A DNA stretch of 64,000 bases from Eledone cirrhosa (taxonomy: Eukaryota): assembly GCA_964016885.1 (NCBI GenBank), contig OZ024741.1, positions 109,182,001 through 109,246,000 on the forward strand, in the 5' to 3' direction. Position numbers and translations under genes: made by a program. Of this stretch, positions 4,731 through 40,000 are shown in pieces. Below the pieces are notes generated by a model. That model was not told the DNA's origin. It saw only the letters and a list, made by a program, of their open reading frames with translations, and made no database searches. Position 1 is the stretch's first letter. Each line of letters starts with the position of its first letter.

Positions 4731-4786
4731 ACTGCTATATATATTTCGATGATAGCCATTGAATGGCTATGACCTCATCAGGCAGT
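4731..4786 (-). ncRNA. Type I hammerhead ribozyme, minimal palindromic stem III
   Basis: Minus strand: actgc-CTGATGA-ggtc atagccatt c aatggctat catc-GAAA-tatataT-A-gcagt, then aaataaa. Confidence 0.85.
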
Positions 4787-8107: not shown

Positions 8108-8174
<67 letters not shown>

Positions 8175-8367
8175 TAAGTATGTACACGTACATACATATA
8201 TGTATACAGACGCACAGTAGTATGTATATATATATACATACATATATGTACGTATGGATTCACCGAACATTTATTATAATGCTCGGTGTGTTTGTAAACA
8301 AACATCCCGTATTAAGCCGTAGTGTCCAGCAACCATCGTTGCTCGTTTGTTCAACACTGACAAAGTA

Positions 8368-8410
8368 ACGCTGTACTAGTTTCAAGCTTATTAGCTATCG
8401 TCAGCAACGT
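8368..8410 (-). ncRNA. Minimal type I hammerhead ribozyme
   Basis: Minus strand: acgttg-CTGACGA-t agct aata agct t-GAAAC-ta-GTA-cagcgt. Palindromic stem III ACUAGU. Confidence 0.82.
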
Positions 8411-8769
8411 ATACCTTCCTGCCAGATTGTTGAACGTATTTACTTACCTTATGCATATTAACGGCTGAGCAGCCCAATTTGCATATTGAGTGGGTTAATA
8501 GGCCAGGTGCACCGAAAACGATAAACGGAAAAAATGAAACGAAATTTCATTTCCCACTCTTAGTACGGCTGTTACTTAAATATAAGTATGTACACGTACA
8601 TACATATATGTATACAGACGCACAGTAGTATGTATATATATATACATACATGCACACACATAATATGTATAAGGTAAGTATATACGTTCAACAATCTGGC
8701 AGGAAGGTATACGGTTGGAATACGATCATCAGCAGAGCTCAACACGATAGCCAAATTCTCACTGATTAA

Positions 8770-10878
8770 TATTCTACAAAGAACATACCCGTACCAAGCA
8801 GGAAAACATACCTAAAACTCCTGATACAGAAAACAGACTCGTTCATTAAAAGGTTGCGTTGGCGTGCCTTTTATTTCGATAATCCGCGAAAAGCAGACAA
8901 CAAACAGGATAAATTTGGATTTAAAACCTATCATAACCCCCCGTGTAATCCAGCATTGCTACCCTACGAAAATGATGTATTGGAACTTATTCGGAGTATC
9001 AAATTTCGGAATAGGAGCAATTCCTTCCAGCAAGACCTGAAGAATAGAATTCGTTATATTAAGGATTCTAATGCCGTGCACGTCCATTCCGACAAAACTG
9101 GCAACCTATGTCAAGTGGAGCGCAGTACTTACCATCAACTACTACATAATGCTGTAACTAAGGATTACCGTAAAACTAATCGGTGCGTCATCAATGAAAT
9201 CAACGATGCTGGGTTTAAAATCACATCTGATCTCAACATCCTGGACCGGACCGAACCTCTGGACCCTATTTCTCCCCACTTTACCCTGAAGGATCACAAA
9301 TCCAATTTTCCGAACAACCCCTCTATTCGGCTTATTAACCCTACGAAGTCCGATTTAAGTAGACTTAGTAAAATGATCCTTGATAGAATTATACCTGCAA
9401 TTAGAAGTGTGGCCCCTCTTGCACTGGGGAACAATTCTTTCGCGGTGATTGATTGGTTCAACGGCATATGTAACAAGGAACATTGCCGTTTTATCCAATT
9501 CGACATCAACAATTACTACTCCTCCATCATTTTACCACTTCTCCTTAGAGCTATCAATTTCGCTAAAACACTCACAGTGTTTAAGGATTTCGAAGTTGAT
9601 GTCATCCTCAATGCCCGAAAGTCGGTGATTAATTTCGACGACTCTATTTGGATTAAAAAATCCAATAGTACCCCATTCGACGTGAATATAGGCGCCGGTG
9701 ATTCTGCGGAGGTTACTGATCTTATCGGCCTTTTCCTTCTTTTCTCTATCAAGGACGAATTCCCCAACGCGGGAGGTGGTTTGTACCGTGACAATGGTCA
9801 TTTGACCATGACTAAGTGCGGACCTCGTGCTTGCGACAGGTTCAGAAAAGAACTTACAGCCTTCTTTAAAGGCTTCAACCTCTCTATACAGGTTGAGGCC
9901 AATCTCTCGGTCATTAATTACCTCGACGTTACACTCAATTTATTGAATGGGTTGTATTACCCGTATAGAAAGCCGAATGATATGCTTAATTTCCTAAGTA
10001 AGCATTCCAACCATCCTGCCAGCATAACCAAGAACCTGGTAAGAAACGTTTCGTTGAGGCTTTCTCGTCTTTCCACCAACGAGCGTATTTTCAACGACCA
10101 TTCCACTTATTACAATGAAGCTCTTGCTCGAAGTGGATTTGTCGATAAGGTAGCATATACAGAGCACGAAAATAAACCTAGAAGAAATAGACCCCGTCGC
10201 ATTTGTTGGTATAACCCACCATATAATATGGAGGTGGCCACACCATTAGCTAAGATCTTTCTTTCCCTTATTACGAAGCATTTTCCCCCTACACATAAAT
10301 ATAGTAAAATTTTCAATAGAAATACTATTAAAATTTCTTACTCTACGACTCCTAACCTTGCACATAACATCACAGCTTCAAATTTAACTAAACTACCTAG
10401 CCGTAGGAACACGTGCAACCCTGCAGTTAGTACTAACTGTAATTGTAGGAATCGGGTTGATTGCCCCCTATCCGGGAAATGCCTCTCTAGTAACATTGTC
10501 TACAAATGTAAGGTTGTAACACCCACGTCCCGTAGGGCCTACATAGGGTTAACCGCCAATAGATTCAAGAAGCGTCTTTACATGCATACCCATTCTTTTC
10601 GTTACCCTTTAAGAAGGAATATGACGTCACTTTCTGCTTATATCTGGAGTCTAAAAGACAACCACACCCAATATAAGTTACACTGGGAGATCCTAGCTAG
10701 GGCTAGATCGTATAACGGAAATAAAAGACCATGTGACCTCTGCGCCGCTGAGGCCCTGGAAATACTCTACGCCACTGACCACATCTTAAACAAAAAATCT
10801 GAGGCAATTTCGGCTTGTAAACATAAATTGCACAAAACTTTCTTGTATTACAGCCCCACGTTATACCCTAACGGATAA
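8770..10878 (+). CDS. Penelope-like element ORF: reverse transcriptase plus C-terminal GIY-YIG endonuclease (Naiad-like by N-terminal and linker motifs); catalytic motif reads YRDN
   Basis: The ORF-track frame (8854) extends in frame back to 8770 (YSTKNIPVPS..IKRLRWRAF). RT motifs SDKTGN, KDHK..IRLINP, QFDINNYY, GLYRDNG; linker CNCR..CPLSGKC; IVYKC..YIGLT; CDLC..E. No in-frame ATG at the expected start. Confidence 0.92.
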   Translation, partial: YSTKNIPVPSRKTYLKLLIQKTDSFIKRLRWRAFYFDNPRKADNKQDKFGFKTYHNPPCNPALLPYENDVLELIRSIKFRNRSNSFQQDLKNRIRYIKDSNAVHVHSDKTGNLCQVERSTYHQLLHNAVTKDYRKTNRCVINEINDAGFKITSDLNILDRTEPLDPISPHFTLKDHKSNFPNNPSIRLINPTKSDLSRLSKMILDRIIPAIRSVAPLALGNNSFAVIDWFNGICNKEHCRFIQFDINNYYSSIILPLLLRAINFAKTLTVFKDFEVDVILNARKSVINFDDSIWIKKSNSTPFDVNIGAGDSAEVTDLIGLFLLFSIKDEFPNAGGGLYRDNGHLTMTKCGPRACDRFRKELTAFFKGFNLSIQVEANLSVINYLDVTLNLLNGLYYPYRKPNDMLNFLSKHSNHPASITKNLVRNVSLRLSRLSTNERIFNDHSTYYNEALARSGFVDKVAYTEHENKPRRNRPRRICWYNPPYNMEVATPLAKIFLSLITKHFPPTHKYSKIFNRNTIKISYSTTPNLAHNITASNLTKLPSRRNTCNPAVSTNCNCRNRVDCPLSGKCLSSNIVYKCKVVTPTSRRAYIGLTANRFKKRLYMHTHSFRYPLRRNMTSLSAYIWSLKDNHTQYKLHWEILARARSYNGNKRPCDLCAAEALEILYATDHILNKKSEAISACKHKLHKTFLYYSPTLYPNG

Positions 10879-11795
10879 TACGATCTATACGTGGTTATTT
10901 TACGTCTTGATGTGGGAGCTAAGTATATGTTTTGTTTATACCTTTACTTATTTGCATAGGTAAGTACATATTACCCGTATGTTTTGTGAAGGCACGTATA
11001 CATTCTCGTACGTATATTTGATTGTTTATGGTATGGCGTATAATTTTATATATTCTGGTGCATATGGTTTGGCTACGTGTATACGGGAGTTTCGCGTCTG
11101 TGTGAATATGCACGTTCGTACGTATGTAGGGTGTGTGTATATGTGTACTTCATGTTTTGGTTGACTTACGTCTCCGAACATTCGTGTATTTACATGTAGG
11201 TATGTGTGTGCGCTTGTTATATACGTATTTATTTATTTATATACGTTTGTATAATTATTTATTTATTTGTATACACGCATACACACACACATATTTATAT
11301 GTGCGTGGTTTCGTTTACCTATGGTAAGTGTTTTGCGTTTGCCTGTGTATGTACGTATTTGTTTGTGTGTATGTATTTATTTATTTCTATTACTTTTATG
11401 TTGTATTTATTTACTTTGTTCTTAACTCTGTAGCGGAGATTCATTCGGTCTCCTAGTTAGAATTTTAGTCTACGACTTCTGCTATACCATTTACGTGGTT
11501 TTGTCTTTGTGTGCTATTGTTCTCCACGCTCCACATATGACGTTTTATCTTCGTTTTTTTCGTTCATTGCCAGAGAACGTCTCTATGAACCACCTAAGAG
11601 AACATTAGTCTAAGACCTCTTTTATACCCTAAACGTGCTTCTGTCTGCGTGTAATTGTTTTTCACCGCTCCTATTAATGACGTATAATATTCGTTTTTTC
11701 CCGCTCTTTGCCAGCGAACGTTTCCACGAACCAAAGTATCGGCTTCCTGTCTTCCTCCGGTTGCAACGTTTTTTGAAATATCCACTTCTGCGTTT

Positions 11796-11871
11796 ACAGA
11801 TTGACTTTGTTAGTTTCAGAAGATCCCGTTAAGGGTGAAAGCAGCGATTCTTTGCTTAAACTTTAATCTGT
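11796..11871 (+). ncRNA. Type I hammerhead-like motif, variant core CAGAAGA
   Basis: acagattga..agttt-CAGAAGA-tccc gttaa gggt-GAAA-gcagcgattctttgcT-T-aaact ttaatctgt, AATAAA at 11878. Ends the 3' tail of the PLE ORF. Confidence 0.72.
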
Positions 11872-12109
11872 TATTTTAATAAATATTTGCTCTACGGTTC
11901 TTATATATTTGATATATATTTATCCTTATCGAGCCCTCTTTGGATTTTAGTCTTCAAATGTATTATTATTACTATATATATATGTCTTAGAATGAAAAGA
12001 GAGTGAGAAAGGACGCAGTATCTCCCCAGTGTTTCAGGATGTTCATATTTCTCAATGTTTGTTTGTTTGGGTTTGTTTTTTAGTATATATTAACTGACTT
12101 CTCTACCAG

Positions 12110-19006: not shown

Positions 19007-19162
<156 letters not shown>

Positions 19163-19192
19163 AGAATCAAAGCTATGTTCAAAGCATTTATT

Positions 19193-19239
19193 AACTTACA
19201 ATTGTTTCATCCAAACCTAGGCTTGGTGTCTTCGGAGCA
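19193..19239 (-). ncRNA. Hammerhead-like motif, variant core CCGAAGA (3' pseudo-LTR)
   Basis: Minus strand: tgct-CCGAAGA-caccaagcc ta ggtttggat-GAAAC-aatt-GTA-agtt, then AATAAA. Confidence 0.62.
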
Positions 19240-20394
19240 TGTTTCAATGTTTGTACACATGATTGACCTCCTTTCCAACGCAAGAGACATACAGATACTA
19301 CATATGTATATTGATGTACAGTGGAGTGACATATATTATATTATATTACTTCCGTATAGCAATTCAAATTCAATGTCAAGATCAATATCAAAATTAAAAC
19401 AAAATTAAAATTAAATTAAATTATTTTAGCTTATTGCGGCTCAGTGTTCTTTAATCCAATTTTATAGGGTAGGTTGTTTCCGTTGCGAGAATTTACATCG
19501 GTTTATTTTCCGGAAGTATGTGTGTAATTAAGGGTGGTTAATGCGTAAGGGGAGGTAACTAGCTGATTTCCATAACTAAATTCATTGTTCTAACATACAT
19601 TATAAGGTGTCTCAATTGAGTCCCTTCTATAGACGGTTATATATATCAAGTTTCCAATTTTAAACACAGTCTACTCTATCATGATGTACTAAAGGTATTT
19701 ATATTAGGATGATTACTCCCTATCATAGAGTGCTACAACTGGATATTCCATACAAAGAGCCACATCTTTATATCAAAGTTCCTTGCAAATGTAGTCTACT
19801 CACAGAACATGTCAGGGGACCTATTAGTATTATGTCTACATAACCCCTGGTAAGTTCTGTAGCAGCGTATGGCTGTTTGCATGGCAAAGCCAAATACATC
19901 TCTATGGCAGACAAAACCATCCCTCATTTACAATGACATTAATCTATCCCTCAAGTTGTACCTGCATATATAACTCACTTCCCATTCATACATAGTTCAT
20001 TGCACTCAACATATAGGTTATACAGATCTCTTATGTTAATAAATTAATCTTATATATATCCAATGTTATCACTCCATACATACATTTGCATAAATAATAC
20101 ATTGTCAAATTTGGTGTTTAAAGCTTATATAGACTGCATTGTATAATTATAAGTGATACCCCACGGACACCCACCCCTAGTATAACCACCCCCCAACTAC
20201 TATATAATTATAAGCAGTTGAAAGTAATTACCCCAAAAGTAGGTGCTCATGGGGATATTTCTAGTGTATAAAGTTATAGACAGATGGAATGATTTGTGTT
20301 GAGATAGGGTGGATCAGAGAGTGTGGAGTTGTGGTGTAACGTGTGCCCTTGAGGTGTAGTGTTAGAAGTGGTGATGGGTTCAAGTCTGACATTG

Positions 20395-22835
20395 TTATAT
20401 ATTGGGTTTAAAGTTTTGGAAGGAGTGTCGGAAGCGGTGCTGGCACGACGCAAACACTTCCGATTTTTTTTATTAAGGAGGTTATGGTTTGAGAAGATTA
20501 TAGTATGGGTCTCTAGTAGACAGAGGTTGCAGAATTTATTAGGTGGTTTTTACGATGCCGCTTTACCTATCACTTCCCATTTAAGTGTATAAGATCTATT
20601 TTTAGTTTTTAGATAGAGTATGTAGCTAGATAGTGAAGTGGAGTTGGCTAGACTGTGTTTTTTGAAAGAATGGAGGTGTTAATTGTATCTGGTTTTGAAG
20701 CAGTTCGAAGTAGAGCCTATATAGGTTTCAGAGGAGTTGCTAGTTATGACGGTGCATGAGTATATGATGTCCTTGATTAAGCAGTTTTTATCTAAATGGC
20801 AGGTTCTATTAGATCTACAGTTACAATTATTTTGGATGTTAACCTGCCGGTTATGTTGTGTAGAAGTCCGGTTGCTAGTTATTGCATTATGGCTATGAGG
20901 GTTGTCGCTCCCAGTGTTATTCCTTACACTAGTGCTATTACTATTATTATTATTGATATCAGGGTTTGTAGATATAGCGTTGTTTAGAAGGTTTACCTCC
21001 TGCCGTGTTTTAGTTTGTTGGAAGTAAGTATTAATGTTTCTTTTATTGCTACTAGCTATGTGGTATGCTATGTTAGGCGTGTTAGAGTAGGAGATTTTAA
21101 TTGTGTTTTTGTTTATAAGACTACGGTACTTGTGGCCAGATGGGAAGTTTTTACCCAGGAGTGAGAATAAAGCCTTAGGTAGGTTGATAGAGACGTTTAG
21201 ATTGAAAGGTGGGTTGAAAAATGTATTATTTCTTCTTCTATTTTTGTTTTTTATGTCTGGTGCGATGCTTCCATTTATGGTATTTTGGTGACTTCTGTGG
21301 TGTGGGTTACGTTTGTTGTCACCCTTCGTACTAGTGTGTGTGTGGTTATTACTCTTATTACTATTTTTTCTCATGGACATATTGTGCGATATAATGTTGT
21401 AACTATGTGTTCTTGTAGGTAGGAACTCGATCTCATTAGTATGGCCTGATCTAGCTAATGCCTGATTATAATATTGAGTTTTTGCTAAATATGTTTTCGT
21501 CATAAGATAGATTAGAGATTCTATTGGATATTCCCTTAGAGATAGAGTTTAATATTGATCTAGGGTGGTTAGACTTGGTATCTACGTAAATCAGTTTTTC
21601 GTTAGGTTTATGGAATGGTGTATATATCCTAGAGTCTAGGTAGAGGGTGGCATCTAGGAAGTTAACGTTTTTAGTGTTTTTGTCTATGGTGATAGTTAGG
21701 TTATAGTTTTTGAAAGTCTTGTGCAATAGTTTTCTAGTTCTTTCTATATTAAATTTTGTATAGTCTATAAGGAGAAGTGCATCATCGCGGTACAAACCAC
21801 CGTTGAGGTATGGAAGGTCCTTATGGATTTCGTTTAGTAAATATAGGCCCACCAAATCAGTGACCTGCGCCGAGTCACTAGATCCCATGGTTATGTCAAA
21901 GTTGTTTTGCGTATCCTTGCGGATCCATAACTGGTCTTCAAAAGTGATTACGGTTTTACGGGCCGCAAGTATGACATCAATCTGGGGTCTAGTCAGGTCA
22001 CTATTGTTCATGGCCATAATTAGTGCCTTATTTAATAGGATAGGAGAAATAGAGCTGTAGTATGAATTGATATCAAATTGAATAAATTTTTTATCTTTGT
22101 TTACCTTGATATCCTTGAACCATTCAATAACTTCACCTGTATTTCCCTATTGTTTAAGGTATATTTTGTGTTTAATCTGTGGGATGATTTTATCTAAAAT
22201 GTTCTTACTGATAATGCCAATATCTGACTTGGAAGGGCAGATTAGTCTAATCGAGGGGTTGCTAATGAATTCCTCCTTATGGTCTTTCAGAGAGAATCTA
22301 GGGGGGTTTGGGGTGTATGGTTGTGTATGTCTCTGAAGTCCTAGTTTGGACACTATACTACGGCCTTCTATATTAATTTCTTCTAAGTTTTTCATAGTAG
22401 TTTTCTTGTAGCTCTTATGTAGTTCATTATATATAAACTTTCTATATGTATTATAACCTAGGCTGTATATGTTATTAGTTTTGTCCGCATGTACAATAAT
22501 TTTACTACTTGTTTTGAATTCATTAATAGAGGTGTTAAGTTTGTTTAAGAAGGTGTTGTTTTTATTGCGATGTTCTTAACTAGTTTTATTAGATCATTTT
22601 CAAGGGAGTTTAGAAGTGTGTTGTGAGGGGGGTTTCTAAAAGTTTTAAAGCCGAAGGAGTCGAATTTGTTAGTATTATCAACTTTGTTAGATTTGCTCTT
22701 ATCATAATGGAATGTCCTCCATCTCACCCTATTGATAAAGGAGTTGACACTGTTGATCAATAATTTCTCATATGTATTCTTGGATGGTATTGGTATGTTC
22801 TTGGCTGATATAGGGAGTTGGTCTTTGATCAGCAT
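20395..22835 (-). pseudogene. Disrupted PLE RT plus GIY-YIG ORF (Naiad-like)
   Basis: Pieces SAKNIPIPS..RVRWRTF, KDHKEEF..IRLICP, GGLYRDDALL, CNCRSNRTCHLDKNC and ETYIGST, separated by frameshifts and stops. Confidence 0.9.
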
Positions 22836-23085
22836 ACTGGTAATTTATTGTATGTTAGCTCAACAGTATGGAGCAGTTAATAATATTAAGGATACTATTT
22901 ATGGTTATGTATATACTAAAACTTTTTATAGTTATATATATTTTCAACCCTAAACAGTGAAGGTCAGTAATTAATTGCTACCTTATTATCAGTAAGATAA
23001 ATAGCTCAATGTAATAACATCAGTTGTTCTACAGAGCAGTTATATAGAATTCACAAGAATCAAAGCTATGTTCAAAGCATTTATT

Positions 23086-23132
23086 AACTTACAATTGTTT
23101 CATCCAAACCTAGGCTTGGTGTCTTCGGAGCA
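23086..23132 (-). ncRNA. Hammerhead-like motif, variant core CCGAAGA (5' pseudo-LTR)
   Basis: Identical to 19193-19239. Confidence 0.62.
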
Positions 23133-24749
23133 TGTTTCAATGTTTGTACACATGATTGACCTCCTTTCCAACGCAAGAGACATACAGATACATATGTATA
23201 TATTGATGTACAGTGAAGTGACATATATTATATTATATTACTTCCGTATAGCAATTCAAATTCAATGTCAAAATCAATATCAAAGTTAAAACAAAATTAA
23301 AATTAAAACAAAATTAAAATACATTCGGCAGTTAACATAGATAATGCAAGAGGATAGTTTGTTAGTCAGATGTAGTAGTTATTGTATGCGTTAGTTATGT
23401 GTGTCTCATTTATATATGATTATTGTGTGGCAGGGTGTTACATGTAATACAAGCACTTTTCGTGGGTAAGTAAGAGTATTATGGAGGTTGCAGTGGTAAG
23501 GTATTTTTTGTATATGATAAAAAAGTATGTGCGCAGAAAAATAGAAATAGAAAGGAGAAGCAAAAGAGAGTTATGGTTTTCGTATCCACCACCATTTTCA
23601 CATTCAGGTAATGTAATAAATAGTTTATAAATCCATCACATAATTAACGCTGATTCTGTATTGGATGTTTGATGCATTAAATTAAATTATTTTAGCTTAT
23701 TGCGGCTCAGTGTTATTTAATCCAATTTTATAGGGTAGGTTGTTTCCGTTGCGAGAATTTACATCGGTTTATTATCTGGAAGTATGTGTGTAATTAAGGG
23801 TGGTTAATGCGTAAGGGGAGGTAACTAGCTGATTTCCATAACTAAATTATTGTTCTAACATACATTATAAGGTGTCTCAATTGAGTCCCTTCTATAGACG
23901 GTTATATATATCAAGTTTCCAATTTTAAACACAGTCTACTCTATCATGATGTACTAAAGGTATTTATATTAGGATTATTACTCCCTATCATAGAGTACTA
24001 CAACTGGATATTCCATACAAAGAGCCACATCTTTATATCAAAGTTCCTTGCAAATGTAGTCTACTCACAGAACATGTCAGAGGACCTATTAGTATTATGT
24101 CTACATAACCCCTGGTAAGTTCTGGAGCAGCGTATGGCTGTCTGCATGGCAAAGCCAAATACATCTCTATGGCAGACAAAACCATCCCTCATTTACAATG
24201 TCATTAATCTATCCCTCAAGTTGTACCTGCATATATAATTCACTTCCCATTCATACATAGTTCATTGCACTCAACATATAGGTTATACAGATCTCTTATG
24301 TTAATAAATTAATCTTATATATATCCAATGTTATCACTCCATACATACATTTGCATAAATAATACATTGTCGAATCTGGTGTTTAAAGCTTATATAGACT
24401 TTATTGTATAATTATAAGTGATACCCCACGAACACCCACCCCTAGTATAACCACCCCCAACTACTATATAATTATAAGCAGTTGAAAGTAATTACCCCAA
24501 AAGTAGGTGCTCATGGGGATATTTCAAGGGTATAAAGTTATAGACAGATGGAATGATTTGTGTTGAGATAGGGTGGATTAGATAGTGTGGAGTTGTGGTG
24601 TAAGGTAGCCCTTGAGGTGTAATCCTATATATATCCAATGTTATCACTCCATACATACAAATACATTTGCATAAATAATTCATTGTCGAATCAGGTGTTT
24701 AAAGCTTACATAGACTGTATTGTATAATTATAAGTGGGGTATCACATAA

Positions 24750-26608: not shown

Positions 26609-26705
26609 CGAAGGAAGTGTGGTAGGGAACCAGGTGGACCATAACGCACCAGAGTACTCGATACTTTGGGTGGGTAGTAGAGTTGGTAATAGGAAAAGGG
26701 TCAGG

Positions 26706-26800
26706 ACCCTGGCCGCAGAGCTCAAGCTGTTTCGACGGCTATTTCTGGACTAAATTAAATTTTTAGCGTATAGTTGATAGAGCCGAACTCTTCAAGGGGT
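26706..26800 (-). ncRNA. Degenerate copy of the UUGAAGA hammerhead (inverted arm)
   Basis: Reverse-complement homologue of 28117-28211 with stem III mismatches. Confidence 0.55.
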
Positions 26801-28116
26801 AATTCCATATATGGACATGCGATTGTCAGGCATTTCTGAATGTTGAAGCTATCATAAAGGAGTGGTCGAAGTTCTTTTTAAACACAGTTAAATCTTTAGG
26901 GGTGGGTGGCTGAACTTGCATGTAGAACAAAGAGGGAGTGGGTGAAGCCGGTCAAGCGTTAAAAGTAAATTCTATACAGCTATTTCTAAAGAGTGTGGAT
27001 AAGGTAGGCTGGCTATAAAGCAAGCGAAAAGTGCCCCCTCAACAACAGATGCCGAGAACGTAACGTGATCTACCAATGCAACGTGAGGACGGAAAACTCC
27101 AACAAAGCCTATATAGGATTAACCGCTTGTGACTTTAAGACCCGGCTCTACCAACGTTCAGAAACCCGACCCGGTGACATGCCACTACACTTTCGGGCCA
27201 CATGTGGGACCTCCAAGATAATAACATCATATACCATCTTAGTTGGAGCTTACTTTCCAGGGCTAACTCCTACACCGGGAGGACGCCATCCGTGTAACTT
27301 ATGCTCGGAGGAAATGATACAAATATTGTTTACGGAGGACCAACTCCTAAACAAAAAAGACGAACTTGTAACCGCATGTAAACACGGATTGCGTAGGACT
27401 AACCTCACCTTGAAACCCCCTCACGACCCGGATGGGTAGACAATGGCTGTAATATCTTTCTTTTCCCCACTTGCCGAACAAGACAGGAGAAACCCTAGCA
27501 TACATAGGTAGATGTAATACTTTTCTTTTTTTCATTTTATCTCTTCTTCTCACTTCCCTCCACTCCCTCTCCTCTTCCTTTTCCTTTCTCCTCTTTCGCT
27601 TACCCTGAGGCAGCCCATCGTATTTTTGTAGCCTCAGTATACCCCTATCCCCGTGAAATCTATATAGCATTGGCTGAAAACAGAACGTCAGTTAAAATTA
27701 TAGCAGCTGTTTCCCTTTTCAGGGAGGTGCATCGTTATTGATATTTTTCCGTTATGAGATGAAGCCCTGGGGTACTGAATTAGATGTATTTTATTAATCC
27801 CGGCTTTCCTGTTTTAGACTCTAGTTCCTTAATTTTATAATTTCCCATCTTTCAGAATCCTGTATAATTCTATTTTCGCTTGCTTTTTAGCCAGTCTACT
27901 TAATCCATACTCTTTAGAAATAGGTGTATAGAATTTACTTTTAACGCTTTACCGGATTCACCCACTCCCTCTTTGTTCTACAGGCAAGTTCAACCACTCA
28001 CACCACCTACCTCCCGCCATGACAGATTTAACTGTTTATAAAGAACTTCGACCACTCCCTTTTGATAACTACAACCTTCAGAAATGCCTGACGATCCCAT
28101 GCCCATATATGGAATT

Positions 28117-28211
28117 ACCCCTTGAAGAGTTCAGCTATATCAACACCACGCTAAAAATTTAATTTAGTCCAGAAATAGCCGTCGAAACGGCTTGAGCTCT
28201 GCCGTCGGGGT
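28117..28211 (+). ncRNA. Type I hammerhead ribozyme, core UUGAAGA, long stem II
   Basis: acccc-TTGAAGA-gttcagctat..atagccgtc-GAA-acggc ttgagctct gccgt-C-ggggt. Confidence 0.78.
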
Positions 28212-28220
28212 CCTGACTAT

Positions 28221-28284
<64 letters not shown>

Positions 28285-32830: not shown

Positions 32831-33963
32831 AATATATATATGAATAGATTCAGGACCCCGACGGCTGAGCTCCGACCGTTTCGATAAATATATATATAGA
32901 TATATACACATAATTGTTTCTACTTTTGGCACAAGGCCAGCAATTATCCCAGTGCATTACTGGTACTTTATTTTATCGAACCCGTAAGGATGAAAGGCAA
33001 AGTTAACCTCGGCGGGATTTGAACTCAGATCATAAAGGCCCGTAACTGCAAAGCATGGCGTCCAACCCTCTACGGGTATATAGATATATACACATAATGA
33101 TGTGCTATCCTTCATACTTTTCACAATGTTATTGCTCCTATTTGGGACTTCTATACTTGCTCACTTTGTTCCTCATCTACCTAGGCTTTATTTGAACATA
33201 TCATCTATGTTTCATTTCTGGTGCACCTCATCTCTCTCTCTCTCTGATATTATAATCTACTATGATTGGTCTTACCTCATCCACATATATGAACGCATGT
33301 CAGATTGCTATTATATATATCAATCAGATTCGAAATTACTTGTTTCTTTGTTTTTTATGATAATTAAATAAAAGGAATTCTACAGTTAAACACACATACA
33401 GAAGATACCAACGTTGTTACCAAAGAACCAGAAGCTTGACAATCGACCATACATATGACTAATAACACTAACGAAACCATGAACGACACCACATCTTTTT
33501 TTTCTTCAATTTAAAATGTAGGTCTATAATTATTAACTTTCATTAGTGGGAGGTTCTAGACATGGTGTTGATCCTGGTCTGGAGTTCAATCTTGGGCAGG
33601 AAATACACATTGGGGGTTCTAACTAAACTTTTTTATTTTTTGCTTTCTAACTGCTGTAAAGAGAAATTGAAAAAGATTAATAGGACAACCTACATGTATC
33701 TCCTGAACAGGATTGAACTTGAGATCATAATTTCCACCGTCTCTAATACGACTAACTAAGCCACCGAGACACCTACGAAAACATACTGAAAATCCATACT
33801 TATAAACCTACTTTCAAAATTGAAATCAAAAAAGATGTGGTGAAGTTCATGTCTTTCTTAATTTCGGGTCGACTTTAAATCATTTGGGACTTCAATAAAC
33901 TACATCCCCACTTTGTTTATCATCTACCTTTATTTCATTTCAACCTATAATCTATGATTCATT

Positions 33964-34913: not shown

Positions 34914-34999
<86 letters not shown>

Positions 35000-35450
35000 G
35001 AAAGGTATAGAAAATTAACCAGTACATTACTGGTACATTATTTTATGTTTAGCAGAGATTGTAGAATATATTTTATCCGCCGAGGTTAACTTTGCCTTTC
35101 ATCCTTACGGGGTCGATAAAATAAAGTATCAGTAATGTAATTGCTGGCCTTGTGACAAAAGTAGAAACAATTATATCGTATATCACTTGATTTTAAAATA
35201 ATTGTTTCTACTTTTGGCACAAGGCCAGCAATTACCCAGTGCAATACTGGTACTTTATTTTATCGACCCCGTAAGGATGAAAGGCAAAGTTAACCTCGGC
35301 GGATAAAATATATTCTACAATCTCTGCTAAACATTGAACCTGTAACTTCAACATATCAGCTGCAAATGAGCCACCAAGACATAAACAGAATGTCATGTCA
35401 AACTTACATTATTAAAATATCATATTTAAATATTCAAATAACTAGATGCT
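30760..35450. repeat. Cluster of diverged foldback repeats with tRNA-like heads
   Basis: The block ataaacctact...gatgtggt..ttcatgcctttctta recurs at ~31070, 31960, 32730, 33800 and 34665. Inverted arms at ~30800-31045, 31762-32000, 32490-32700 and 33545-33775. Confidence 0.75.
32911..33072 (-). mobile_element. tRNA-derived SINE (family A) with target-site duplication
   Basis: Flanked by tatatagatatatacacataat on both sides. Confidence 0.85.
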
Positions 35451-35967: not shown

Positions 35968-36050
<83 letters not shown>

Positions 36051-36066
36051 AGTGTGTGTGTGTGTG

Positions 36067-36734
36067 TGTTGGGTTCTTGCTCACATTAATTTCTATATTT
36101 TCATTTATATTTATACTCGGAATTTTTCCTCGAGTGCTTAAAATTATTTGTGACTAATTCCGGTCTTTTTAAAAAAATAACCGCAATAATATTGCTATTT
36201 TGCTGAACTCCTTACATTTTGTAGTTTTTGCGGAATGTTTTTGACTGCTGTTTCTTGTAAATAGACATTCGTCTCATTCTGACGTCACCAGCCATGTCTC
36301 TCCATGTGTGTTTATTTTCATAATTCCGCACGAGGTGAACTAGCCTGCTTTTAAATTCCCTTTTTGGCATATTTTGGCAGTGGTTTTTTGGTTATCGTGT
36401 AGAGCTCTACTGAGGAACGATTCGTACCGTGACTAATACCACTGAAAAGTTTCGTGAAATAGTCTTTTTAAGACTATATAGAGCATTTGTAGTTTTTTCC
36501 AAATTGAAGGATGAGTATTTAAACTTTATTTTATTCTGAGTTAAGACTCTATTGGTTTTTTCCCTGTATTTCACAAAATCTGTGGATAAAATCTCTGTCT
36601 TGATTTTTTTTTAATTGAGTGTGAATTATTTTCCCATATCTTACGTTAATTATTTTCAATTTTGACGTTATAGTCACTTATATATTATGAAATACTGTTG
36701 GCTTCTTGCTCACATTAATTTCTATATTTTCATT

Positions 36735-36739
<5 letters not shown>
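36067..36739 (+). mobile_element. 629-nt terminally redundant non-coding unit containing a hammerhead (retrozyme-like or solo pseudo-LTR)
   Basis: 44-bp direct repeat (36067-36110 and 36696-36739, one mismatch). Single HHR inside, no ORF, flanked by microsatellites. Confidence 0.6.
36404..36484 (+). ncRNA. Canonical type I hammerhead ribozyme with predicted pseudoknot
   Basis: gctcta-CTGAGGA-acga..tcgt-GAA-atagtctt ttt aagactat-A-tagagc. Loop II (36428-36444) is complementary to 36378-36397. Confidence 0.92.
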
Positions 36740-36776
<37 letters not shown>

Positions 36777-37055
36777 TACAGACAGAGAGAAAGAGAAAGA
36801 AAGAGAGAGAGAGAGAAAGAAAGGAAGAGAGAGAGGTGTGGGGGGGGGGGAGATAAATAGATATCTTTCTTTATTTGCCACAGGGGCGTACAAAAATGGC
36901 ACATTACAGGACGTGACGGCGGGGTTTTTACATAAAAATAACTTTAACATTAATAAATAACAATAAACTATATATAATAAAATAACAATTGAAATCCCCA
37001 ATAGGGGGGAACGTTACTGCAGGGTTGTTTTACACCCCCGTGGATAGAACAACCC

Positions 37056-40000
37056 TCAACACCAGGAACACGTTTTGTAGGTGTTCCTGTCTTCCCTCTG
37101 TTTATCTTCCTCAACCTTCAGGTTTATATACAGAGAAGGCCCATTCACTCGGGCCATTTTTGCCATATTCACCCACCTTTCAGCGAATTTACTGGGGTGT
37201 AGCACCTCTGTCTCCACTCTCACCTTCCTTCTGAAGTGGTACTTAAAGAAGGGGATAAGTTGTTGCCCGGAGAGAAAGGTGTTTGACCTCAGTCCTTTTA
37301 ACCTCGTCCACCATATTACCTTTTTCGCCATAGCCACCAGACAGAGGAAAACCGCCTCTCCTTCGTTCTTAAATGAAGGCAGCGGGGTGATCCTCACAAT
37401 GTACTCGGCTGACAACTGGATGCGTCCCACACGTGACAGAAGCTGTTCGTCATAATTCCACAGGTCGGTCACCCCTGGGCACTGAACAATTGCGTTCAGA
37501 ACAGTTTCGATCTCCTGCTCGCGTCTTGGACAGCTCCTTTTGGCAGAATCTCTGCCAGGGCGTCCGTGCCTGTAGATTTTGTCTCGAACTGGTAGAGCTC
37601 CTCGCTAGCACTGCCAGGCCAGAGACCTCTCGAAGTTATCCATAGGCCCTGGACGGAAAGTCCTCCCGAACAGACTGGTCAGTTCGTCCTCCTTGATGCC
37701 GAGAGTTTCCCCGAGAACATCGTCGCACTTATCCTCCACTAATCCCCTATAGAATATCGAAGTAGAGTCTCCGCTGATTGCCGTTTCCGCTTGGTAGAGG
37801 GCTGTGAGCGTCTGTAGGCACTCGAGGTGCCAGGCACCCATTTTCGGTCTTCGCTTGACCCAGGACTGCAGCTCTGTTAGTGAGACGAGTTGTGGAAGAG
37901 CTTGTCTCACAAACGACAGCCACACCGGTTCACCGGTCAGGAATACCTGGAGATGGCGTAGCCTCAGCGCATGTTTGCGCATCATCAGCCACGGCATGCC
38001 CAGCCCTCCGTTAGAAGGGTGTTGACACCAATGGAGCCTGTTTCTTCCAGAGGAACTTGAAGAGTAGGCGTTCCATTTTGGTAAGTTATTCGCGGGGGCA
38101 AAGCACGACCGTCAAGCGGTAGTAGATGACGGACGCTAGGTAAGTGTTCGCCACCTCCGCTCGACCTTTCAATGAGAGTTTGCACTCAGCCCACTTCTGG
38201 GTGAGTGCAAACACCTTCCCCGTGACCACGTTCCAGTTCTTGTCCACCTGGAAGTCTGGACCGAACCAGACCCCGAGCAATTTCACCGGTCCTTCCGTAC
38301 AGCGTCCAACGACACTGTCGGAAGGCATGGGTTTGCCTCTCCATGTGCCGAGTTGCAAACCGACATACTTGTTTGGGTTTAGTCTTGCTCCTGTCAACGT
38401 TTCGTATTCCTGTAATAGGTTGCCGATTACCCTGATTTCCGAGGTTTTCGACACCATTACGGTTATGTCGTCGGCATAGGCTGAGGCTGCTTTCCGCAGT
38501 CCTGGTTCGATCGGGATGCCCTGCAACAGCTCCAATTTCCGCAGTAACGGCTCGAGAGTCAGTACATACAGAATGGAGGAGAGAGGGCATCCCTGACGGA
38601 TGGAACGCATGATTTGGAATGGCTCTGATAGGTAGCCATTCCCCTTGACTGCCGAGTAGATGCTGGTGTGCATGGCAGCGATCCAGCCTCTGAAGACGGG
38701 ACCGAAGCCAGCCGCCTTGAGAACTGCTTCCAAGTATTGATGGTCGACCCTATCAAATGCCTTAGACTGATCTAAATTGATCAGAGCCCCACCAAAGCCA
38801 GGTTTACATCCTACCTTCTCTATGATGTATCGCATGAAGTGGAGGTTGTCGTGTATGGACCTGGTCGGGATTGCACACGTTTGGGCTCCCCCTACCAGCT
38901 TCTCGACGACAAACGCCAGCCTTGCTGCTAACACCTTGGCCAAAATCTTTAACTCTGTGTTGAGTTGAGTTATGGGCCTGAAATTGCTTATCTCATCCCC
39001 ATTGTTCTCATCTTTCCTTATCAGCATTACTACGCCTCTGCCTATAGAACTGGGAACCCTCCCGTTCTGCTGCCAGTTGCAGTAGACCGCTTCGAGGACA
39101 CCAGAGAACAAGTCTGGCATGCCTATGTAAAACTCATAGGGTAGACCATCTAAACCGGGTGATTTGCATTTCCCGCAGCGGCCTAAGGCATCTTCTATTT
39201 CTCCCGCTGTGATCGGCCTTTCGCAGCTCTCCGCATCCGTGCTCGAGAGTCACGGTACGCCGTTGAGGTAGGAGCTGAAGTCCATCACCTCGCTCGATGT
39301 ACCGCTTTGCCCGAACAGTTGTGCAAAATGCTGCTGGATTCAAGTATAATGTGTCCATCTTTGTCTTGCAAAGACCGAATTGTGGATTTATTGCCATTCG
39401 GGCCCAGCTAACAGCTTTGGCTCCCTCGTTTCTTAGAGCACGTGTTCTACTTCTGACAATACAACCTTCGTATTTCACGTTGAAGAACTGGTCAAGTGCC
39501 GTTCTCGCCGCAGGTACGTCAGCTGTACTGCCATTCCTAAGTGCCTCTTCTATTTTAGCTACCAGTTCCTTTTCAGTTTTGTTTTTTCTAAAACTACTTC
39601 CTTGCTAAATGCTATTGATTCTATTCTAATTGCTCTCTTGAGAGAGCTCCACCACCTGATGTTGACGATCGCCCCCGTCAACTGGCACTTAACTAAGGTG
39701 CTAATCCATTTACTGCAGGATTTACGCGCCGGGAGCGACATGTTTAGCTTCTAGTATCAGGGTCCCTGTCTATGTGTTCTATCAAGGTTGACTACGCAGG
39801 TGACTAATTTGTGGTCTGAATAGACAACCATGTGCATTTGTGGACAGCTTAATGTTTCCTTATCATTCTGTCTAATTAAAAATCTATCTAAATACGATCT
39901 AGAAGACCCAGTGCGGTTTCTCCACGTCCATAGTGGTGCACTTGGGAAGTCTAGTCGATATCTATCAGCCAGTTGGAATTGGCTGATGAAATTTTTGAGG

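Follow-up and report, generated by a model that had tools for sequence, protein, structure and literature searches.

A 629-nt repeat with a hammerhead motif and a terminally redundant copy: very probably a non-autonomous Penelope-type family

The insertion at 36067–36739 of the window (the whole 64,000-nt stretch of DNA analysed here) is 673 bases long and corresponds to 1.07 units of a 629-nt repeat. We hold with high confidence that this repeat is a non-autonomous Penelope-type family. The full mechanism that we favour for its spread is trans target-primed reverse transcription of an uncleaved linear RNA into a TA microsatellite; we regard this mechanism as having about an even chance of being right. 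By what route animal retrozymes get back from RNA into DNA, and which helper element serves them, are open questions in the cited portions of Cervera and de la Pena 2020 (PMC7229834) and of Li, Clavereau and Pollet 2026 (bioRxiv 10.64898/2026.07.22.740005). For that question, a family of many copies that has an apparently fixed priming end, members just over one unit long and a junction with an ORF of the Hydra clade offers good material. As it stands, the 629-nt family is one more of a described kind.

Structure of the insertion

The insertion is bounded by a direct repeat of 44 bp (36067–36110 and 36696–36739) whose copies start 629 nt apart. This repeat had been reported in the first-pass annotation of the DNA and is borne out: the copies are identical at 43/44 positions (BLAST within the window, E 9.5e-16), and an exact repeat of at least 20 nt occurred in 0/1000 dinucleotide shuffles of the 629-nt unit. 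The 5' copy (36067–36110, plus strand), an overshoot or mini-pLTR, begins with TGT. These letters overlap the (TG)n flank, possibly as a microhomology junction. Behind it lies the full family unit (36111–36739, plus strand), which is ORF-less and has 31% G+C and 43% T. Its end is the 3' copy of the repeat (36696–36739, plus strand), which runs into (TA)n and is the apparent common 3' end of the family. The flanks, to which no strand applies, are (AT)32 followed by (TG)18.5 on the left (35970–36069) and (TA)22 on the right (36735–36778), the latter being the likely insertion target.

The annotation had also described the unit as lacking an ORF and an AATAAA after the hammerhead, and both statements hold. 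The longest ATG ORF, with the unit read as a circle, has 52 codons and lies on the minus strand, and AATAAA is absent throughout the plus strand, which carries the hammerhead. The unit was also considered as an old internal dimer and this was rejected, 198 of 500 shuffles matching the alignment of one half against the other. A palindrome, TGACGTCA, presumably CRE-like, stands at 36280–36287 in a top-covered block 5' of the hammerhead and is one of three such sites in the window; it is possibly an internal promoter element.

Hammerhead motif and local fold

A type I hammerhead motif occupies 36404–36484 (plus strand), 261 nt from the 3' end of the unit. Stem I has 6 bp (36404–36409 paired with 36479–36484), stem III has 7 bp, and stem II, 4 bp long, encloses a 39-nt domain II. 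The core consists of CUGAGGA (36410–36416) and GAAA (36456–36459), and the cut is predicted after 36478, behind an AUA triplet (36478/36479). The sequence features of a type I hammerhead are present: the CUGANGA and GAAA core, an NUH triplet and three stems, open at stem I. The call was made with a purpose-made descriptor, Rfam giving no hammerhead match: the whole window had 0 matches at the gathering threshold, and none of the 14 matches at E ≤ 10 in 36000–36800 is a hammerhead. On our descriptor the motif scores 17, against 9 for the best of 3000 shuffles, 2999 of which scored 0. What had been annotated as one perfect hammerhead in the middle of the unit is indeed one complete type I motif, "perfect" being true of the motif only. 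A relaxed scan found seven hammerhead-like motifs elsewhere in the window, and AATAAA follows within 25 nt in 3/7 of them; the claim that most other hammerheads have it directly behind them was overstated.

Among 40 of the 237 read variants, a single one falls in the catalytic core, at 36414, which is the free N7 position. Reads often have C at 36479, and a family fragment at 8711–8773 has G at the partner position; the two, though not phased, may be a compensatory pair. Read variants at 36437–36438 and in the 5' flank look partly compensatory, again without phase.

Local folding predicts stems I and III with a probability of 0.78–0.96 and stem II as rare (0.04); the active hammerhead fold lies 2 kcal/mol above the local minimum. 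The 5' flank (36378–36394, plus strand) is predicted to pair with loop II (36430–36444) with a probability of 0.95–0.97. This pairing would form a pseudoknot on the active hammerhead, and pseudoknots of that sort are reported in many hammerheads in the cited part of PMC3088659.

The unit is a many-copy family in genomic DNA

We aligned four of eight listed public runs to the 673-nt insertion: X1 and X2, contigs from one sample of organism A; X4, contigs from organism B; and X6, raw RAD reads from organism A. Matching records were found in all of them (2504 in X1, 2314 in X2, 48 contigs in X4 and 2910 reads in X6), with identities that spread from 99+ to under 90%. They cover 30/30 bins of the insertion in three runs and 27/30 in X4. 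Both organisms carry the 629-nt unit as a diverged family of many copies. With its stand-alone, ORF-less unit and the head-to-tail junctions described below, this upholds the annotation's reading as a non-autonomous hammerhead element.

Depth is 3'-polar in four of four runs and about 4 to 30 times lower near the 5' end. At 36665–36710 versus 36113–36158 it is 251–263k versus 11–14k in X1, 213–224k versus 8–11k in X2 and 30–64 versus 2–7 in X4, where the summed depth of contigs cannot be read as a number of copies and also depends on how far they diverge from the copy in the window; in the raw reads of X6 it is about 710–730 versus 96–163. A group of 309 X6 reads diverges from the window sequence behind 36710, and their consensus ends like the window 3' end, in alternating T/A, with only its last letter separating a 3' end from an internal continuation. 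A probable short 3'-end fragment of the family lies within the window at 34987–35018 (minus strand). It ends in (TA)n at the family 3' end point and has 20 exact letters of a read variant; taken alone the match is weak (12/500 shuffles as good). On the basis of depth, the last letter of this one loose-end consensus and this one window fragment, the copies seem to have a common 3' end with 5' truncation. The freely permuted copies foreseen in the annotation do not agree with this polarity and apparently single 3' end. As judged from depth, the family has the signature of Penelope-type insertion: a common 3' end in (TA)n, 5' truncation and a partial tandem.

Two X1 contigs have short duplications of the 3' block within 36674–36714, one running from 36709 to 36674 and the other from 36714 to 36681 with an intervening GTGT; they suggest that priming recurred close to the 3' end.

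Head-to-tail repeats of the unit are present in genomic DNA, in raw reads and in contigs. Two of 14 joints run from the 3' repeat to the unit start (36703/36704 to 36106), in 6 + 5 raw X6 reads with three starts each, and these 11 firm junction reads could all trace back to a single locus or two in one RAD library. Their shorter side is 37 letters long, so that both sides of the joints reach beyond the 44-nt repeat. Further joints in X1 (36721 to 36098), X4 (36710 to 36101) and X6 (36717 to 36090), the lengths of whose sides are not stated, match the 629 period within two letters. In-register end-to-start joints thus come from two organisms and several sequence variants. We conclude from the head-to-tail joints that copies longer than about 1.1 units are present in DNA, probably in both organisms. 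No record in the four runs spans one whole unit outside the locus, and the locus itself has one hammerhead.

Both 44-nt repeats of the locus carry one minority sequence variant of the family; together with their identity at all but one position, this points to one insertion event. It is most improbable that they are a target-site or local duplication with the hammerhead incidental to it. The cited part of PMC7229834 does speak of large target duplications in animal retrozymes, but here the repeat is deeply covered family sequence in all four runs, reads of other copies show it joined in register to the start of the unit, and it recurs at 34987–35018. Because of these joints and the deep coverage, the 44-bp repeat is element sequence, unless the joints are alignment artefacts. 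A target duplication had been named in the annotation as an outcome that would speak against a retrozyme-like element, and the joints in other copies answer it.

Pattern searches found no relative of the unit: a 26-nt unit pattern had 0 matches in metagenome contigs, and the matches of a 15-nt pattern at 120 viral loci were set aside as chance, none of them matching the unit over more than 20 nt.

Linear or circular template

We infer that the template of the window copy must have held both an intact cut site and a unit junction, as either an uncleaved multimer (or a template used with re-priming) or a ligated circle would. The cut site shows no step in depth (63k before and 51k after in X1), and no loose end and no record beginning or ending at 36479 occurs among 24 of 555 loose-end and 6 of 13 begin/end groups. 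Cleaved linear RNA is therefore not obviously the main template.

Under the linear mechanism, transcripts of head-to-tail copies would cross the unit junction. A Penelope-like endonuclease would nick (TA)n, and reverse transcription would begin at a fixed site, corresponding to 36739. Most copies would end early, leaving a surplus of 3' fragments. In the window copy, synthesis would have continued through the intact hammerhead site and 44 nt of the next unit, or would have re-primed at the 3' start; the product would then have been joined to the (TG)n flank on the TGT microhomology, much like the partial tandems, or pseudo-LTRs, that Penelope elements form. Cutting by the hammerhead would bring multimeric transcripts down to unit length, a step that is unnecessary for explaining the insertion.

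A circular template is the chief alternative and the less likely of the two. It is the model of the annotation, but with priming at a fixed site in place of random permutation. Here, hammerheads would release 629-nt monomers, a host ligase would close them at 36478/36479, and reverse transcription from 36739 would proceed once round and 44 nt further. This route fits a window copy that spans the intact cut site of a well-formed hammerhead motif, and it fits the head-to-tail junctions in DNA. The predicted full circular fold masks the hammerhead (stem I probability 0.0, stem III about 0.15), a segment at 36194–36209 (plus strand) being predicted to pair with 36448–36463 (mean pair probability 0.81), and such masking would keep a circle stable. 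The circular fold is also more stable than 60/60 shuffles (z −2.5), unlike two Hydra-type 3' regions (z −0.3 and −0.2). However, its paired fraction is 0.60 versus 0.58 in shuffles, which speaks against calling it "highly self-paired". The overshoot is small in both redundant units of the window (44 of 629 and 75 of 408 nt), but steep 5' truncation gives a short overshoot too. Penelope reverse transcriptases are not known to have RNase H, and its lack would predict a short overshoot on a circle; steep truncation predicts the same.

Published systems bear on both routes, as far as the cited portions of each source go. Retrozymes of mussel, coral and axolotl accumulate as circles, but reverse transcriptase templating by circles is only hypothesised, and 629 nt exceeds the 170–400 nt of the invertebrate circles demonstrated (PMC7229834). 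Naiads, which are without canonical hammerheads, form partial tandems and 30–40-bp tails (PMC8557442). Since they arrive at the same redundancy, terminal redundancy is no proof of a circle, although the annotation had read it that way. Unprocessed RNA serves as the main substrate of purified Penelope reverse transcriptase in vitro, and hammerhead mutants leave insertion by the purified anole element unchanged (PMC11167929). It is the redundancy of Naiads and this preference for unprocessed RNA that lead us to favour the linear route over the circle. Inverted 5' copies, and (TA)n targets for Hydra elements, are described in PMC8557442; for the purified anole Penelope element, PMC11167929 gives an internal fixed start of reverse transcription and both strands nicked and extended. 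One point runs against the linear route: with its 7-bp stem III and its predicted local stem I and III pairing, the hammerhead may cut fast, in which case uncleaved multimers would be scarce and a re-ligated circle would be favoured. If the footprint of a circle were true together with the bolder reading of 8169–10878 given below, it would be direct evidence for the hypothetical circle-to-DNA step of animal retrozymes, the Hydra clade would be named as helper, and a genome-wide test by means of overshoot lengths would be possible.

Link to Hydra-clade Penelope elements

The window holds a 702-codon open frame at 8770–10878 (plus strand) that is Hydra-clade Penelope-like (RWR, DKT, YRDN, CxCx5C and YIG), the marks of the clade being those defined in section 11 of PMC8557442, with the alignment rows of its supplement, in the portions cited. 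Pfam did not recognise the frame. We rejected its assignment as a Naiad, because the endonuclease of Naiads is N-terminal and the motifs of the frame agree with Hydra. Such a frame is a candidate for the donor type of reverse transcriptase and endonuclease.

We built a Hydra profile from 60 of 121 available proteins, those of 650–780 aa. It detects parts of Hydra elements at five sites of the window. Over the 629-nt unit the profile gave no match at E ≤ 50, nor did the protein P0001 give one, and by this profile the unit lacks the RT and GIY-YIG ORF of an autonomous Hydra-clade element. No significant alignment was found between the unit and any of five Hydra-type 3' regions of the window. Derivation of the unit from the start of the Hydra ORF in antisense was rejected, 193–470 of 500 shuffles being as good. 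In metagenome contigs, the Hydra protein had 55 pattern matches, none of which passed tblastn.

These results bear on the idea that an autonomous Penelope outside the window has the unit as its non-coding end, or pseudo-LTR, and that the redundant copy is a rare gutted by-product and not part of a family that sustains itself. The 3'-polar depth is the pattern of truncated autonomous copies, the distance of the hammerhead from the 3' end is near the usual 100–200 nt of Hydra elements, and the 5' flank of the hammerhead has 14/15 letters in common with Hydra-1_Obim, a similarity seen by eye and to be taken as a lead only. But the unit has no remnant of a Hydra ORF and no significant match to the Hydra-type 3' regions or the antisense ORF start. 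A foreign coding flank appears in none of the same 24 of 555 loose-end groups, the one at 36106 being AT-rich, and the end-to-start joints are in register in two organisms and several variants. We consider such a gutted origin improbable.

A more direct link to the Hydra clade lies at 8711–8773 (minus strand), where a family fragment consists of the 5' flank and the first half of the hammerhead (0/500 shuffles as good). This 60-nt match is joined head-to-head to the start of the Hydra ORF over a 4–5-nt common stretch. The junction at 8770 corresponds to position 7 of the Hydra profile, and homology stops there. The fragment carries a family variant that is also seen as loose ends behind 36373. 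Two independent insertions could have made this junction. A Hydra-clade element is nevertheless, in our judgement, the likeliest partner of the 629-nt family. Mobilisation by a Penelope-like reverse transcriptase and endonuclease, as proposed in the annotation, fits the (TA)n-anchored 3' end and the junction with the Hydra-clade ORF.

Comparison with known elements

Judged by its sequence, the family would work like an animal non-LTR retrozyme, for which our references are the cited portions of Cervera and de la Pena 2020 and Li et al. 2026. It has their type I hammerhead, lacks an ORF, stays below 50% G+C and shares their head-to-tail junctions, dispersed monomers and co-occurrence with Penelope elements. 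Li et al. describe families of 51–972 bp with frequent monomers and descent from pseudo-LTRs; the 629-nt unit lies within this range and above the invertebrate circles of PMC7229834. Because the locus has one hammerhead, it is not "active" in the sense of Li et al., which in the cited portion takes two consecutive units. It departs from animal non-LTR retrozymes in that truncated copies anchored at the 3' end seem to make up most of the family, and in the 7-bp stem III and long domain II of its hammerhead.

Other features resemble Penelope elements as described in the cited portions of Craig et al. 2021 (PMC8557442), Arkhipova et al. 2013 (PMC3846280) and Frangieh et al. 2024 (PMC11167929). 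With Hydra-clade Penelope-like elements and with the pseudo-LTR and tail structures of Penelope, the family shares a sense hammerhead near an apparently fixed 3' end, a (TA)n target, 5' truncation, a partial tandem with short terminal redundancy, a head-to-head junction and the presumed trans mobilisation via terminal sequences. The differences from Hydra-clade elements are the lack of an RT/GIY-YIG frame or its remnant and the lack of significant homology to the Hydra 3' regions of the window. An autonomous Penelope element was rejected as a class, the unit being without an RT/EN frame by the Hydra-clade profile. Most copies appear to carry the 44 nt at the 3' end, which makes the 5' copy at the locus look like an overshoot, rather than the 3' copy like an optional tail.

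Among the Chlamys elements, non-autonomous ones such as MRC1 are likewise ORF-less Penelope derivatives with pseudo-LTRs and head-to-tail insertion in microsatellites, but the Chlamys elements are algal and most are without canonical hammerheads, according to the cited part of PMC8557442. With plant LTR retrozymes the family shares non-coding hammerhead elements and the 600–1000-nt size class (portions of PMC7229834, PMC6765202 and Li et al.). Those retrozymes have type III hammerheads in LTRs of about 350 bp at both ends, a PBS and PPT, and 4-bp target duplications, in the same portions. We rejected this class, as the window unit has one type I motif, which lies outside the 44-nt repeat. The family was not evident among the works listed on octopus and Penelope hammerheads and on non-autonomous Penelope pLTRs, and two unit motifs are absent from the available portion of the supplement of PMC8557442; Repbase or Dfam may already list it.

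A second redundant unit and other features of the window

An unrelated terminally redundant hammerhead unit lies at 8169–8651 (minus strand), with a period of 408, a 75-nt repeat that is 100% identical and a (TA)n end. The layout of 36067–36739 is thus not unique even in the window. This second unit has a minimal hammerhead at 8404 with a palindromic tetraloop, and a 53-nt inversion at 8661–8713. Its circular fold has a z of −7.0, a score that palindromic low-complexity tracts may inflate. Kinship of the two units was rejected, with 348/500 shuffles as good.

The region 8169–11975 is a composite with its 3' ends outward: two minus-strand non-coding hammerhead families stand head-to-head with the plus-strand, near-full Hydra-clade ORF. 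The composite is possibly one insertion event primed on both strands. A bolder reading takes the insertion at 36067–36739 as 1.07 turns round a hammerhead-made RNA circle and 8169–10878 as the work of one Hydra-clade reverse transcriptase complex that copied its own RNA and those of two different retrozymes into a single nick; we find it rather doubtful.

A broken Hydra-type frame (22820–20400) lies within 19153–24621 (minus strand) between long 97% identical repeats (19410–20358 with 23676–24621; 19153–19415 with 23046–23307), an arrangement like pLTR-ORF-pLTR. A degenerate hammerhead-like motif followed by AATAAA was seen by eye near 23125. At 26689–28228, a fragment of a Hydra-type endonuclease is accompanied by its own 3' end in inverted copy; a hammerhead-like motif whose domain II is long was seen by eye about 20 nt from its (TA)n end, and related ends occur at 32884, 42652, 44384 and 52038. 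Copies of a hammerhead-like motif at 11817 (plus strand) and 17774 (minus strand) have the identical core deviation CAGAAGA, which is either a common inactivation or a natural variant. More hammerhead-like motifs stand at 4781, 5494, 26320 and 43806, all on the minus strand; the window contains no further copy of the first three.

Some 300 nt to the right of the 629-nt unit, at 37056–39604 (minus strand), is a broken element that carries a reverse transcriptase domain (RVT_1, E 1.1e-25), and no link between the two was seen. To the left, 35045–35334 forms a palindromic arrangement with 93-nt arms that are 98% complementary. It consists of an abundant short repeat that is present at about ten other sites of the window.
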